64,000 nt of DNA from Podarcis cretensis (GCA_951804945.1 OX638157.1:31372001-31436000), one strand, 5' to 3'; shown: positions 1-54,940, counted from the first letter of the stretch. Numbers and translations: made by a program. The notes: a model not told the origin generated them from the sequence alone.

Positions 1-1509
1 TCTCCCATTCTTCGTAGTATATATTATGGCCGATGTCCCTTGCCCAATGAATCATCACAGACTTCACTTCCTCATCTATCAAGTTATACTCTAATAGCAT
101 ATTATACGTTTTAGAAAGAATTTTATAATCATTGTTTATTATTTCAGTCTGGAATTTAGATTCTTTATCCGCGAATCCTCTCTCTTTAACGTCTTGTCTA
201 AACATTTCGTTTATTTGGAAATAGTGTAACCAATCATAGACTTTTTCTTTAACCTGGTCATATGGTTTCAGTTTCCATGTCCCCCCTACTTTTGTTAACA
301 ATTGTTCATAGGTTATCCAATCACCTCTCATGTTTACTTTTTTCACGCTCATAACTTCCAATGGGGATAGCCAGTGTGGTACTTTAGGTTCTAGTAAAAA
401 TCTATTCCTCTCCCAAACTTCCATTAGGGGGCCTTTAAAAATATGCGTTGCGAAACCCTTGTGCTTCCTCTTCCCCTGCCATAGGTACGCATGCCATCCT
501 GCTCTGTTGTCGAACCCCTCCAGGTCTAATAGTTCCTTATTTTCCAATTTTATCCACGTTTTCACCCAGCAAAGGCACGATGCCTCATAATATAATTTCA
601 GATCTGGCAGAGCGAATCCCCCTCTTTCTTTAGCTTCTGTTAACAATTTAAACTTAATCCTTGGTTTTTTGCCCTGCCAGACATATTTTGAGATTCCTCT
701 TTGCCACTCTTTAAATATCTTAGTGCCCTTGATTATCGGTAAGTTCTGGAACAGAAATAACATTCTCGGGAGAACGTTCATCTTGATTAAAGCTATCCTA
801 CCCCAGAATGACAATCTCAGCTTCCCCCACCTCTCCAAGTCCTTTTTTATCTCTTTCCATACCTGCTCATAGTTATTCTTAAATAGGTCTATATTTTTCG
901 GGGTTATCCATATTCCTAGATATTTTACCTTTTTGGCCACTTCTATTTCTGTTTGTTGTTGTAATTCCTCGATTGCCTTCGAATCTAAATTCTTCACCAT
1001 TATTTTAGTCTTTCTTTTGTTTAACTTAAAACCAGCCACCTTACCAAATTGATCCAGTTCTTCCAATATCTCTTTTATTGAGTTCAGCGGGTCTTCTGTT
1101 GTTATTACTAAATCGTCTGCGAACGCCTTAACTTTATATTCATTTTGACCAATTCTAATCCCTTTTATTTTCTTATTTTGTCTTATTGAGTTCAGAAGTA
1201 CTTCCAGTACTATTATAAATAGCAACGGGGAGAGTGGGCAACCCTGTCTTGTACCCTTCGCTACCATTATTTCTTCTGACACCACGTTGTTTATAATCAA
1301 TTTGGCCTTTTGCTCCGTATAGATTGCCTTTATTCCGTTGAAGAAGTTCATACCGACCTCCATATATTCTAGCTGTTTTAGTAAAAAGTCCCAAACTATA
1401 TTATCGAATGCTTTCTCTGCATCCACGAACATCATTATGGCTTGCTTATCATACCTGGCAGACAAGTATTCTATAGAATTTATTATATTTCTAATATTAT
1501 CTTTCACTG
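1..1509 (-). mobile_element. L1-clade LINE, 5'-truncated ORF2 (reverse transcriptase domain), continuing past the left edge of the window
   Basis: Manual minus-strand translation gives VKDNIRNIINSIEYL..MMFVDAEKAFDN..KGTRQGCPLSPLLFIIVLEVLL..YKVKAFADDL, i.e. the L1/Tx1 RT motifs including catalytic FADD. Probably absent from the ORF track because the frame runs off the window. Confidence 0.93.
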
Positions 1510-17809: not shown

Positions 17810-18048
17810 CAAAACAAAATAAAAAAATTCCTTCCAGTAGCACCTTAAAGACCAACTAAGTTAGTTCTTGGTATGAGCTTTCGTGTGCATGCACACTTCT
17901 ACAGGCACACAAAAGCTCATACCAAGAACTAACTTAGTTGGTCTTTAAGGTGCTACTGGAAGGAATTTTTTATTTTTTTATTTTTTTATTTTTTTAATTA
18001 TTATTTTTTGTTTTGACTATGGCAGACCAACACGGCTACCTATCTGTA
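17810..18048. mobile_element. Penelope-like element mini-insertion with inverted pLTR arms and a degenerate minimal hammerhead ribozyme
   Basis: ~70-bp near-perfect inverted repeat (..CCAGTAGCACCTTAAAGACCAACTAAGTTAGTTCTTGGTATGAGCTTT / AAAGCTCATACCAAGAACTAACTTAGTTGGTCTTTAAGGTGCTACTGG..); PLE-type end GCAGACCAACACGGCTACC; direct repeat ACTGAAGTTCTGGT at 17796-17809 and 18049-18062. Confidence 0.88.
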
Positions 18049-25956: not shown

Positions 25957-26143
25957 GAGAGCCAGTGTGGTGTAGTGGTTAAGGGTGGTAGACTCATAAT
26001 CTGGGGAACCAGGTTCGCGTCTCCGCTCCTCCACATGCAGCTGCTGGGTGACCTTGGGCTAGTCACACTTCTCTGAAGTCTCTCAGCCCCACTCACCTCA
26101 CAGAGTGTTTATTGTGGCGGAGGAAGGGAAAGGAGAATGTTAG
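25957..26143 (+). mobile_element. Squam3-type SINE, 3'-truncated at a CR1 insertion
   Basis: GAGAGCCAGTGTGGTGTAGTGGTTAAG head; matches the other two copies up to GGAGAATGTTAG, then switches to the CR1 tail. Confidence 0.9.
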
Positions 26144-28100
26144 AATCATAGAATCATAGAGTTGGAAGAGACCACAAGGGCCATCGAGTCCAACCCCCTG
26201 CCAAGCAGGAAACACCATCAGAGCACTCCTGACATATGGTTGTCAAGCCATTGATAAAGATGTTGAATAAGACGGGGCCCAAGACAGAACCCTGTGGCAC
26301 CCCACTAGTCACTCTTCTCCAGGATGAAGAGGAACCATTGATGAGCACCCTTTGGGTTCGGTCAGACAGCCAGTTACAAATCCACTGAGTGGTAGCATAG
26401 TCAAGCCCGCATTTTACCATGTTCTTTACAAGAATATCATGGGGCACCTTGTCAAATGCCTTGCTGAAATCAAGGTAGGCTACATCCACTGCGTTCCCTT
26501 CATCTACCAGGCTTGTAATTCTGTCAAAAAACGAGATCAGGTTAGTCTGACATGACTTATTTTTCAGAAATCCATGCTGACTATTGGTGATCACAGTATT
26601 CCTTTCTAGGTGCTCACAGACTGTTTGCTTAATGATCTGCTCCAGAATCTTCCCTGGTATTGATGTCAGACTGACTGGGTGGTAATTATTTGGGTCCTCT
26701 CTTTTCCCCTTTTTGAAAATAGGGACAACATTTGCCCTCCTCCAGTCTCCCGGGACTTCGCCTGTTCTCCAGGAATTCTCAAAGATGACTGCCAGTGGTT
26801 CTGAGATCACATCTGCCAGTTCTTTTAATACTCTTGGATGCAGTTCATCTGGCCCTGGAGACTTGAATGCATCTAAACTAGCCAAGTATTCTTGTACTAT
26901 CTCCTTAGTTATTCTGGGCTGTGTTTCCTCTGCTGAATCATTTGCTCCAAATTCTTCAGGTCGGGCATTGTTTTCTTTATTGGAGAAGACTGAGGCAAAG
27001 AAGGCATTGAGGAGTTCAGCCCTTTCTGTGTCCCCTGTTTGCATTTCACCATCTTCTCCTCTGAGTGACCCCACTGTTTCTTTCTTCTTCCTTTTGCTAC
27101 GAACATACCCATAAAAGCCTTTTTTGTTGCTTTTAACCTCTCTAGCAAGCCTGAGTTCATTCTGTGTTTTAGCTTTTCTGACTTTGTGTCTACACGTGCT
27201 GGCTATTTGTTTGAATTCCTCTTTGGTGGTTTCCCCCCTTTTCCATTTTTTGTACACATCCTTTTTTAATCTTAACTCGGTTAAAAGTTCTTTAGATAGC
27301 CACCCTGGCTTCTTTAGGCACCTTCCATGTTTCCATCTCATTGGTATTGCCTGAAGTTGTGCTTTTACTATCTCCCTCTTAACAAACTCCCAGCCATCAT
27401 GAACTCCCTTTCCTTTTAGTATTACTGTCCATGGGATTCTCACCCAGCACTTCCCTAAGTTTTATGAAGTCGGCTTTCTTAAAGTCAAGAAATTGAGTCC
27501 TAGTATGCTTGGCTGCTCCTTTCCGCTGTATAGTAAACTTCAGAAGAGCATGATCACTCGCGCCGAATGATCCTTCCACTTCTACCCCACTAACCAGGTC
27601 ATCAACATTGGTTAGGACCAGATCTAAAATGGCTGTTCCTCTTGTTGCTTCTCCCACTTTCTGGACAACAAAGTTGTCTGCAAGGCCAGTGAGGAATCTG
27701 TTTGACCTTATGCTCTTGGCTGAGTTTGACATCCAGCAAATATCCGGGTAATTAAAGTCCCCCATTACTACTATCTCCCTTCCTTTTGCATGCTTGGCCA
27801 CCTGTTCCAGGAAGGCATCATCTATGTCCTCCGTTTGGCTTGGGGATCTATAGTAAACTCCCACAATGAGGTCCCTGTTATTCTTCTCTCCCTTAATTTT
27901 GACCCAAATGCTCTCACTTTGGCGTTCTAAATCTTGGATCTCTTCACAGGTATACACATCCCTGACATATAACGCCACTCCTCCTCCTTTCTTGTCTGGT
28001 CTGTTTCTCTGAAATAGATTGTATCCCTCCATTATTACATTCCAGTCGTGGGACCAGGTTTCAGTGATGCCTATTATGTCATATTTAGTTTGCTGTACCA
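26141..28100 (-). mobile_element. Young CR1 LINE ORF2 (AP endonuclease plus N-terminal half of RT), frameshifted and internally deleted
   Basis: ORF 27397-28113 carries APE motifs (IGITETW, GGGVALYV, VYYRSP, GDFNYPDICW, SDH); ORF 26154-27443 carries RT motifs ([49 protein letters not shown]); (ATTCTATG)n tail at 26141-26160. Confidence 0.97.
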
Positions 28101-51051: not shown

Positions 51052-51771
51052 AATATGCATCATGAAGGATCCTAAAAACAGAACTTGACAGAATGTACTC
51101 TTCTCCTAATGGTTTTAGAGAGGGTGTTGAACAAAGCCCTCACAAGGCTGCTTGCTGGAAGATAGAAGCTGCCTTTTGTTTTATCCTAGGGCATTAGCAC
51201 AAACCAAGTGGCCTATTGCCTCACATTTGCAGAAGACTCCAGGGATGGTGGTTGCCTTTCCTGAAAGGAATTGCTTGGCTCTGCTGTGGAGAAAGGAGGA
51301 AATTCAGATGCAGAGCTTGCAAAGCAGCTGCTCTCCTCTGCTGGCTCAGCTCAGAGTGTCATGTGTCAGGACCCTGCATAAGGCATTATTGTTCACAACT
51401 AGGGTGGGGTGGGGGAACTGGGACTAATGTTTAAAAGCCCACAGCACTTGAGCTTCCAACAGGGCCTGTGTTTGCATGCACACACACCACATGCAATGCC
51501 AGCAAATGTCTGTGTCAGACATAGTATATCTGCATCTTACAGGAGCATTCCTCAGACCATTTCCCCCATAGGCGACCTGTTTAAGTAGGTGAGGACTACA
51601 GTCTTGTACAGAATTCAACCAGGATTGCTGCCCTAAACCTTATAAGGAGTAGAACCCACTGTTAACATTTTGGGGGTCCTGTCACTGGTGGACTTTGTCT
51701 CCTAGCACAGGAAATGGCAACCAGTTCAACTTAACTCCTCTGTTTTATGAATAGTTAGAATCATAGAATCA

Positions 51772-53394
51772 GACTTCCGGGTTGGCGCCATCGCCGAATG
51801 GCGGACTCCCTCCGAGTTCCGGAGGGAGCCTGCTCGGCATGGGCTGGGTTCTACCGCGCCGGCGACGCGGGGACCCTCAAAAACCATGGGCGCTGAAACC
51901 CATGGGCATGGTGACTCGGCGGGCACCATTTGCGCCCCCCCCGACCCGCGAAGGAGCCTTTTTAAAGGCTGCGGAGCGGGTGACAGGGGGTGGTGGTGCT
52001 GTGAGTCCTCCGCTTCCCCTGCCGAGCGAAGCCGCATGCCATTCGACGGAGAGCGCTGACTTCTTCCATTGAAAACTTGGTCTTTAAAAGAATAACCCGT
52101 GAGTAATTGGAACTTGGATTTAAAAAGGGGAAAAATTCTATTTAAATTCGGAGCGAGCGGGGGAGGTGCAAAAAGGAAGTCAGCCTCCCCCCTGTTGTAG
52201 AGGAGCTAAAGCAAAGGATTTGACAACTAAGATCGAGTGTAACCTTTTTTTGATAAAGTTATTAATTTCGCGATGGAAAATTATAAGACTGGGCTGGAGG
52301 AGAAAAGTGGAATGTGAATTAAAATGCAACCCCCCCCCCGGAAACCCCGGGAGCGATCTGAAAGAGCGCCGGGAGAGGAGAAATAGAGGTTTTGACAGCT
52401 GTCAAAGGAGCTGTCAAAGCGGAAGAACAAAAAGAGAAATTTGTTACGAGGACTTTGCTGGCCACATTTGTTACAAATTGGATATAAATTGTTTAAAACA
52501 AGGAATAATAAGTTACTTTGACTGTTGGGTGTGATTGGGAAGGAAACTGAGTTACTATAATCCCTCTAGAGGAGCTGTGGGACACTACAAGTATTGTTGG
52601 CATCGAATTTGAATAGGACTTTTTATCGCCTGGGAAACTGCAGAAATGGAACACTATTTTGTCTACAGAGGTCTACACACTAAAGGAGACAATAGATTTA
52701 TCTATTGAAGAATGGAAGGGACTTGACGTAATGTTTTGTTCCTGAATAACAAAGCCTCTGCAGAGGAATTAGAAGCTTTTTGGAATTAGAACATTTGTGC
52801 AGGAGAGCAGGGGGAAAAAAAATAAGAGGAGGAGAGAGAACAACAAGAACAATAAGAATAACAAGAACTGGACAAAGTTGGAAGATAGACTCCTTCCAAG
52901 ATTGGACATGTGAAACCAAAGATGACCAAAAGATGGCAAAGACTAATAAAAAGACGGCAAAGCGGACTGGTGAAGGACTGTGGTTTAGATGTGGGAGCTC
53001 CAGGATGACAGTAGACATTGATGGACATTGGGAACGCAACCGGGAAAGGGGGAAGGGAAATTTGGAATCCAAAGGGTGTTAAATTACATTTTATTCTTTT
53101 TTTTATCTTTCTCTTTATCTTAATCTGTATTGCATATTAAAGACGGGAACTCGTGGAAGGGAACAGGTCGATTTTAGGGGATGGGAAAATATTTTTTTTT
53201 AAATTGGGCCAATGATAATAATTTTAAAATTTGGGGTAAGAATTTGTTGAATCTATTTGAAAGAATTGGAATACAAGAGGGGGAGGGGAGGGGAAGTCCT
53301 GGAAAGATGCCAATGAAAATAAGGTTTTAAATTTGGATGTTTTTCTTTTTCTGTTATATTTGAAAATCTTTAATAAATATTATTAAAAAAAAAA
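51772..53394 (+). mobile_element. Non-autonomous L1-derived retroposon (HAL1-like, 1.62 kb, no intact long ORF)
   Basis: CpG-rich L1-type 5' end GACTTCCGGGTTGGCGCCATCGCCGAATGGCGG; possible decayed ORF1-like segments; G-rich/T-rich 3' UTR, AATAAA and A10 tail; 16-bp TSD TAGAATCATAGAATCA (51756-51771 and 53395-53410). Confidence 0.8.
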
Positions 53395-54171
53395 TAGAAT
53401 CATAGAATCATAGAGTTGGAAGAGACCACAAGGGCCATCGAGTCCAACCCCCTGCCAAGCAGGAAACACCATCAGAGCACTCCTGACATATGGTTGTCAA
53501 GCCTCTGCTTAAAGACCTCCAAAGAAGGAGACTCCACCACACTCCTTGGCAGCAAATTCCACTGTCGAACAGCTCTTACTGTCAGGAAGTTCTTCCTAAT
53601 GTTTAGGTGGAATCTTCTTTCTTGTAGTTTGGAACCATTGCTCCGTGTCCGCTTCTCTGGAGCAGCAGAAAACAACCTTTCTCCCTCCTCTATGTGACAT
53701 CCTTTTATATATTTGAACATGGCTATCATATCACCCCTTAACCTCCTCTTCTCCAGGCTAAACATGCCCAGCTCCCTTAGCCGTTCTTCATAAGGCATCG
53801 TTTCCAGGCCTTTGACCATTTTGGTTGCCCTCCTCTGGACACGTTCCAGTTTGTCAGTGTCCTTCTTGAACTGTGGTGCCCAGAACTGGACACAGTACTC
53901 CAGGTGAGGTCTGACCAGAGCAGAATACAGTGGCACTATTACTTCCCTTGATCTAGATGCAATACTCCTATTGATGCAGCCCAGAATTGCATTGGCTTTT
54001 TTAGCTGCCGCGTCACACTGTTGGCTCATGTCAAGTTTGTGGTCAACCAAGACTCCTAGATCCTTTTCACATGTACTGCTCTCAAGCCAGGTGTCACCCA
54101 TCTTGTATTTGTGCCTCTCATTTTTTTTGCCCAAGTGCAATACTTTACACTTCTCCCTATTAAAATTCATC
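53395..54171 (-). mobile_element. Young CR1 LINE, 5'-truncated, with intact 3' part of ORF2
   Basis: ORF 53472-54170 (232 aa, [38 protein letters not shown]) has no disruption; the 3' ~105 bp is identical to the 26141 copy. Confidence 0.97.
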
Positions 54172-54940
54172 TCAATTTGGAGTTACATGACTCCAAAATG
54201 AACTGAGGGAAATGAATACTGCCTGGCATAGCAGAACCTAAAGGGTGGATCTATTCTGTGTGTATCTTTTTAAAAATGAATGAAAAATGAGGTGTTTGGC
54301 CTCCCTCATTTACCTCATGTATGTTTTAATTTAAAATAACATATCATAAGGCTAGAAGTTTCCATTGATTGAGAGAAGGGACTGGATTTTTAAAGTAAGA
54401 TAAATAATAATAATAATAATTTATTTATACCCCACCCATCTGGCTGGGTTTCCCCAGCCACTCTTCAGTGATATATCAAACACTTTTCACTATTAAGAGC
54501 AAAACTGATACAGTAATTCTAGCACTGCTTATTTAGAAAGTATGTTTTCTTAGTCAAATGGGACTAATTCGTTAGTAGGTATGGTGAGGATTACAGTCTG
54601 CAAGATTATAAAATAGCCTCTAATCTTCACTATGATTGATAATTTGAATAAGACTGTTCTGATAAGGACAAGCAGGAAATATTTGAATGAATGCCCATTA
54701 CTCCTTACTGTTATCTTATAACTGAACACTGAAAAAGAGATGATTGTAATGCGAATATGTGTGTTTATAGAATGGGCCCAAGGCCAGCCTGATTTGTTTT
54801 GTGCTGAAATGTTTTTTGGGTGCCAAAATTGGAGCACGAGATAGAGAGGTGTGCCTCGTGAACTTTTATGACATCTTAGTGAATGCTTCCTTAAGCCTCA
54901 TCTTAATGTGAGATAGTAAGGGATCTTGGAATATATCCTT

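Follow-up and report, generated by a model that had tools for sequence, protein, structure and literature searches.

A non-coding, multi-copy L1-derived retroposon family in lizards, probably composed of the two untranslated ends of an L1 element

A 1.6-kb insert in Podarcis cretensis represents a real and young family of retroposons that does not belong to HAL1 and that resembles the bipartite, ORF-absent LINE derivatives known as SIDEs in its workings. At a probability of roughly 0.6, we consider this multi-copy, non-coding lizard family to be a SIDE-type L1, built from a clade-1-type L1's 5'UTR plus its 3'UTR and moved in trans. Two other readings are weighed below, one in which the element is a decayed HAL1 and one in which it is a composite retroposon; that the family is non-coding, L1-headed and multi-copy holds under all three.

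The insert occupies positions 51772-53394 of the window (the whole stretch of 64,000 nucleotides analysed here) and is flanked by an exact duplication, 51756-51771 being identical to 53395-53410, so that the length of 1,623 bp given in a first-pass annotation of the same DNA is borne out. The features at and around its ends are as follows.

51772..53394, plus strand: non-coding L1-derived retroposon, full-length at 1,623 bp, one copy of a family (from the duplication and coverage in sequencing runs)
51756..51771, plus strand: left target-site duplication (TSD), 16 bp at its maximum
53395..53410, plus strand: right TSD
53372..53394, plus strand: AATAAA and A10 tail
53395..54180, minus strand: host CR1, 5'-truncated, its tail repeat resuming at 51758-51771
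51753..51757, plus strand: AGTTA, which recurs at 54181-54185 and is the candidate left TSD of the CR1

Insertions mobilised by L1 carry a poly(A) tail, a TSD of 7-20 bp and a TT/AAAA-like target site. The window copy, to which alone this comparison applies, has A10, a TSD of 15-16 bp and TT/AGAA; the AATAAA and poly(A) seen at first pass are found at 53372 and 53385-53394, respectively. The duplication falls inside the 8-bp tail repeat of the CR1, and 16 bp is therefore the maximal reading of the TSD: the perfect 16-bp match that had been claimed does exist, but a 15-bp TSD starting at 51757 better fits the L1 endonuclease site, which we take to be TTCT/AA, and leaves one extra T after the A-tail. 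Excising the insert together with one duplication leaves a junction identical to the one in the CR1 tail near 26139-26161, in agreement with the earlier claim that its removal restores the tail of another CR1 copy.

The host CR1 retains the undisrupted 232-aa ORF previously attributed to it (the open frame at 53472-54182 comprises 236 codons, 232 counted from a Met), and the order of events is that the CR1 came first and the element later, into the CR1 tail. The match between the left flank and a 3,318-nt contig of organism E ends exactly at 51757, and the contig continues with 249 unlike letters; 249 nt counted from the AGTTA repeat beyond the CR1 reach a repeat near 54434. Because the match ends where AGTTA ends, and AGTTA recurs at 54181-54185, we infer that CR1 and element are both likely absent from this locus in organism E. 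Record 9 of run X2 extends 25 nt into the element, short of our 31-letter bridging rule, and is only a hint that the element occupies this locus there. Its position within a CR1 tail might also suggest that the element was mobilised by another LINE, such as CR1, or carried in with the CR1. This is extremely improbable: the poly(A) tail, the 15-16-bp TSD and the TT/AGAA-like site are hallmarks of L1, the element has no CR1 3' end of its own, and copies have other flanks: in record 17 of run X4 the element is preceded by 283 foreign letters that meet it exactly at 51772, which marks a second locus with the same 5' start.

Part of the insert is present in 20 of the 24 public sequencing runs listed, and 14 of the 24 (10 organism labels, 7 studies) hold 0.29-0.78 of its sampled 31-mers; six runs with a share of 0.06-0.17, guessed to be RNA although no run among those listed is so labelled, were left out of the analysis. 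Contigs of four of the 24 runs (X1, X2, X4 and X8) were placed on 51250-53650 at 85% likeness, and every one of 20 bins within the insert was covered in each of them. Summed contig depth, which is not a copy number and is inflated by overlapping contigs, was 0.47-1.52 million on the insert versus 131 on unique flank in X1, 0.26-1.35 million versus 104 in X2, and 20,000-271,000 versus 21 in X8; the CR1 3' end reached 5-7 million in X1. The family may number in the hundreds or the low thousands of copies. The region from 51820 to 53393 is represented in X4 by five near-identical contigs (146-675 nt) at a depth of 9-16, without 3' excess, and the 675-nt contig differs from the window copy by 7 substitutions and 2 gaps. 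Even depth without 3' excess suggests that copies are mostly complete. Coverage holes (X1 is uncovered at 51582-51735, X4 on the flank) carry no weight.

Variation among copies adds a temporal dimension. At least nine of the 30 in-insert variants listed are private to the window copy, and at no fewer than 10 of the 30 the window letter is the majority in organism A and makes up at most 20% in organism E, other variants being intermediate. This nested pattern points to successive master copies and, taken together, even depth at thousands of times that of the flank (in three runs) and species-biased alleles argue for a propagating, mostly full-length family. The expectation of a young family of many colinear copies was thus sound. 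Imagine instead that the insert were one isolated L1 copy with an internal deletion, or an ordinary HAL1 with an intact ORF1 in its consensus. We would then not be surprised to find no second copy within the 64-kb window and, among the contigs listed for the four runs, none that spans the entire element, as is indeed the case. However, the very high and even depth, the colinear contigs in another organism and the subfamily alleles largely refute this scenario, as do stops that persist in the family majority, and we regard it as very improbable.

The insert's three plus-strand frames carry 23, 23 and 33 stops, 5 of these 79 being touched by the variants listed, and the longest Met-initiated ORF comprises 77 codons. 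After forgiving the variants listed, no 1,000-nt stretch has fewer than 7 stops in one frame, or fewer than 4 if two frameshifts are allowed; two frameshifts suffice to open 750 nt from the 5' end. Single-nucleotide indels at 25%, 37% and 48% of X8 depth lie within two long open runs. The insert had been called non-coding and, since stops persist in the majority of copies, this can be said of the family too; like a SIDE, the element has no ORF. Nor is there a trace of ORF2: against 120 L1 ORF2 proteins, neither blastx (best E 0.47) nor HMM searches (best E 0.34) gave a significant match, so that the reported lack of EN/RT stands and the element shares with HAL1 the absence of ORF2. Pfam, run on six frames, returned one chance match (E 0.052).

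Whether the body is a ruined ORF1 is a subtler question. According to the first-pass annotation, the element is HAL1-like and its coding sequence decayed in the master before retrotransposition, which would imply a short 5'UTR, an ORF1 and a 3'UTR, with ORF1 degrading in the master lineage before the present subfamilies arose and copies being mobilised in trans by L1. The body is indeed A-rich and, at about 1,010 nt, of the size of an ORF1. It contains fewer stops than its dinucleotide shuffles (51 versus 62.8 +/- 4.6, P 0.004), and one of its runs stays open for 136 codons (rare in shuffles, P 0.005, but reached in 13 of 96 same-size pieces of the window). This mild stop depletion and the open run count against a UTR-only reading. 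Moreover, the best squamate ORF1-profile match, a weak one (2.2 bits; E 0.017-0.024 over the six frames), is at 52682-52870, a position that would suit the C-terminal domain.

Homology searches, in contrast, provide no significant ORF1 signal, be it by HMM, by blastx or by frameshift-aware alignment. As a reference we gathered 77 ORF1-type proteins by HMMER search, where a word search with P0106 40-178 had given 0 of 333; six of eight tested match Transposase_22, and the names among the 20 of 77 looked up are those of snakes, a gecko, Anolis and Varanus, none of them lacertid. Squamate ORF1 profiles found nothing in the insert above shuffles, and phmmer with the KWNTIL frame as query gave 0 of 722 candidates. 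Two ORF1-like peptides noted previously do exist in the translated insert, yet neither scores as ORF1, and the KWNTIL frame is the one that holds most stops (33). Frameshift-aware alignment returned scores of 15.1, 17.4 and 17.4 under three settings, values matched or exceeded by 21, 17 and 58 of 60 shuffles, respectively (15.1 versus a null of 14.7 +/- 1.7; 17.4 versus 16.5 +/- 2.1). When decay was simulated in held-out Anolis and Varanus ORF1s, these still exceeded the highest null score (23) when 20% of positions were substituted and mostly scored 28-51 at 30%, whereas an ORF1 decayed by 40% would often escape the test. An ESM Atlas search with the 136-codon run yielded no usable match and counts neither way. 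As a possible ORF1 start, we also considered the ATG at 52933 and rejected it: the snake ORF1 N-terminus profile scores -0.9 bits there, and the T at 52934 is a C in 52-83% of depth.

With nothing above shuffles, the reading of the body as a decayed ORF1 is not supported. What, then, might it be? The composition of the insert changes at 52067 and 53077, and its anatomy can be described as follows.

51772..51803, plus strand: L1-type 5' terminus, GACTTCCGG...ATGGCG, with 17 nt between the motifs versus 10 in the Anolis clade-1 consensus (PMC5381506)
51800..51834, plus strand: 5' hairpin, fold z -4.05
51772..52067, plus strand: CpG island, likely an internal Pol II promoter, ending at the change point 52067, CpG o/e 0.94
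52068..53077, plus strand: A/G-rich non-coding body without ORF1 or ORF2 homology, presumably the remainder of a long clade-1-type L1 5'UTR
53078..53394, plus strand: T-rich 3' part, 28% GC, from the change point 53077, presumably an L1 3'UTR

The first part, of 1,299 bp, has 47% GC and 51 CpG, and the last, of 324 bp, has 28% GC, although the junction between the two may lie anywhere within about 52930-53200. For comparison, Boissinot and Sookdeo (2016) give the 5'UTR of Anolis clade-1 L1 as 1,268 +/- 198 bp with 45% GC and about 56 CpG, starting GACTTCCGGTGN8ATGGCG, and the 3'UTR as 345 +/- 118 bp with 33% GC and T-rich tracts (PMC5381506); the two published means sum to 1,613 bp, versus 1,623 bp for our element. 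In Anolis, the GACTTCCGG start is that of the long-UTR clade 1, the short-UTR clade 2 starting otherwise (PMC5381506). The family-majority letter at 51817 turns the hairpin loop into AGCTC, which recurs at a like place in most Anolis clade-1 L1 starts (by eye, in the first 400 nt of the supplement sequences, PMC5381506). An L1-derived 5' end is common to HAL1 and SIDEs, and here the match of motif and hairpin to Anolis clade-1 5' ends, judged by motif and eye, supports the earlier view that the element derives from L1; a CpG o/e of 0.94 over the first 300 nt along with the Anolis clade-1 motif likewise agrees with the CpG-rich, L1-type 5' end described at first pass. Beyond about 100 nt, the L1 5'UTR match rests on length, composition and 5' motifs, and of the second CpG island that Anolis clade-1 UTRs possess, the element has no more than a weak bump of 100-150 nt. 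The 3' part, in which a pyrimidine tract (near 53085-53125) precedes a G-tract (near 53278-53295), resembles lizard L1 3'UTRs in length, GC, T-rich tract and AATAAA, as compared by description rather than by sequence.

The same comparison bears on the HAL1 scenario. Clade-1 5'UTRs, to judge by the Anolis clade that shares the 5' motif, span 792-1,465 bp and therefore leave no room for a 1,066-bp ORF1. In addition, frameshifting indels segregate among subfamilies. Keeping in mind that our power extends to about 30% decay, we consider a decayed HAL1 unlikely. The 5'UTR plus 3'UTR of a lizard clade-1 L1 fits the anatomy better than does a decayed ORF1; since lengths and composition fit the two UTRs, the sequence likely never coded, rather than having lost its coding capacity in a master element as had been proposed.

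SVA and Sadhu elements are non-coding, poly(A)-tailed, longer than a SINE and moved in trans, and they are not known to be built of L1's own two ends. Might the lizard element, which shares the first three of these properties and is probably also moved in trans, be a composite Pol II retroposon of this kind, in which an L1 promoter head was joined to non-coding sequence of other origin, whether or not an L1 3' end was included, and mobilised by L1 via poly(A)? Recognisable L1 features are confined to the first ~100 nt and, at 85% identity or above, no abundant loose end that would mark a parent L1 or deletion junction occurs among the 24 of 1,679 loose-end rows listed. A relative with another 5' head, either a separate family or a subfamily, is also evident: in X2, 33 contigs carry a different upstream sequence joined at 51846. 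However, both parts of the element match published lizard L1 UTRs, insofar as these are described in the accessible literature, in length, GC, CpG count and A-bias, and searches for a Pol III SINE head (tRNA, 7SL or 5S) returned one chance match from Rfam (E 0.91) and none from ARAGORN. We think a composite origin improbable; unlike SVA or Sadhu, the element probably consists of L1's two ends. If it is the UTR-only derivative that we favour, the dearth of abundant junctions among the loose ends listed implies a parent that is old or rare or went unseen. Neither the element nor a lacertid L1 was found in metagenome and viral scans.

How would such an element arise and spread? Transcription, the partner L1 and the mechanism of deletion are matters that we infer. 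An ancestral L1 with a long 5'UTR might have lost ORF1 and ORF2 in one internal deletion, whether by recombination, template switch or splicing, with the retained CpG-island promoter driving a 1.6-kb polyadenylated Pol II RNA. ORF2p of an active lacertid L1, probably along with ORF1p, would capture this RNA via its poly(A) tail and, through target-primed reverse transcription, integrate it into a TT/AGAA-like site. Because each short copy has a promoter and is usually complete, copies could become new masters, with subfamilies succeeding one another. That the element is non-autonomous and mobilised in trans by L1, as first suggested, is the most likely account of a non-coding, multi-copy family with L1-type ends. 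The window also holds a candidate trace of the machinery.

2..1504, minus strand: L1 ORF2 (RT) fragment with 80% identity to a protein of Podarcis muralis

This fragment, earlier placed at 1-1509, contains an open frame of 501 codons at 2-1504; its match to Podarcis muralis points to a lacertid host, and it indicates L1 activity in lacertids while being at most a candidate for the element's partner. More boldly, and at somewhat less than even odds, the family could be an undescribed and successful L1 parasite made of UTRs alone. It would then be the first vertebrate case of a bipartite, ORF-absent family from the L1 clade, more numerous than its autonomous partners, able to beat L1 cis-preference without an ORF1p of its own and still spawning species-specific lacertid subfamilies.

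Kojima (2018) divides internally deleted LINEs into those in which ORF1 is present (HAL1, HeT-A, Ag-Sponge) and those that are ORF-absent, lists the latter as derived only from RTE, Ingi, Vingi and R2, and leaves open whether sampling or biology is responsible (PMC5786205). Wang (2019) added CR1 as a source and called SIDEs rare (PMC6740152). Known SIDEs (RIME, NARTc, Bov-A, RTESINE2, the Vingi derivatives, R2 SIDEs and the CR1-derived Persaeus; PMC5786205, PMC6740152) resemble our element in combining a LINE 5' end and a LINE 3' end, the latter likely in our case, with no ORF, in forming an amplified family and in a presumed Pol II transcript moved in trans; amplification as a full-length family is evident here from even high depth, colinear contigs and subfamily alleles. 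The element differs in its length of 1.6 kb and in its L1-clade parent, a parentage itself deduced from the element and unlisted in the accessible text of Kojima (2018). HAL1 of mammals (PMC5753468, PMC5786205) is likewise L1-derived, without ORF2, non-autonomous and endowed with L1 insertion hallmarks, but HAL1 encodes ORF1p, intact in the consensus, whereas the lizard element has neither ORF1 nor a detectable remnant. With Anolis L1 clade 1 (PMC5381506) it shares the GACTTCCGG...ATGGCG start, an early hairpin, AATAAA plus poly(A), a leader of about 1.3 kb with 45-47% GC and a T-rich tail of about 0.3 kb; it differs in its lack of ORFs, its weak second CpG island and a motif spacing of 17 versus 10 nt. 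Two Anolis clade-2 L1 families have 75 and 144 mostly truncated copies (PMC3787681); next to these the lizard family seems much more numerous, and its copies mostly complete. Among human L1 elements, SpIREs (PMC5860796) are also internally deleted L1 insertions with intact ends. They have lost promoter sequence and are single-round dead ends, however, whereas the lizard element has retained its 5' region and forms a succession of subfamilies, a structure that spans species.

No lizard L1 derivative is mentioned in the accessible parts of PMC7245038, PMC5203782, PMC3342881, PMC5753468 and PMC6050309, and what is accessible of the PMC11303007 supplement holds no match to two element motifs or to HAL1. 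Our search of the open literature, outside which Dfam, Repbase and lacertid genome repeat libraries lie, turned up no description of the family; an uncurated entry likely exists in one of these resources. The UTR-only, enzyme-borrowing design has been reported for other retrotransposon groups; the literature searched yielded no case for L1.

Known L1 derivatives, as far as the accessible accounts go, retain ORF1 (HAL1) or are dead ends (SpIREs). If our reading is correct, the success of an L1 family reduced to its UTRs would suggest that the four-clade list of Kojima (2018) reflects sampling. It would also mean that reptile L1 machinery efficiently mobilises non-coding Pol II RNA in trans, and would offer a natural experiment to tell which parts of the UTRs (5' hairpin, CpG promoter, 3' tracts) are required. 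The element could also be used to ask whether short length escapes the selection seen against full-length lizard L1, and its young, lineage-specific copies are potential markers for lacertid phylogeny.

Several minor observations deserve mention. A splice-donor-like GTGAGT lies at 52099-52104 (element position 328), directly past the CpG island; by eye, Anolis clade-1 L1 5'UTRs in the accessible supplement of PMC5381506 have GT(A/G)AG at about 240-365 nt, which hints at a conserved intron in lizard L1 5'UTRs. At 52389-52420, a TTTGACAGCTGTCAAA palindrome and a duplicated half of it form a strong 12-bp hairpin (z -5.06). Among the squamate-type L1 ORF1 proteins, P0129, P0131, P0134, P0144, P0152 and P0153 (five of them from snakes) share an N-terminal M-x-x-W extension before the usual start, and P0125, P0128, P0134, P0158 and P0175 are full-length ORF1s on contigs of 1.7-2.1 kb, maybe spliced L1 fragments or ORF1-only elements. 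Elsewhere in the window, a fragment at 28098-26235, first read as L1 from a profile match, turned out to be CR1; a 2-kb CR1 at 26141-28100 on the minus strand has endonuclease and RT remains, an internal deletion near its 3' end and the same tail as the host CR1. Finally, at 17811-17982 two 81-nt arms, near-perfect inverted copies of each other, flank a spacer of 10 nt and may represent a small DNA transposon.
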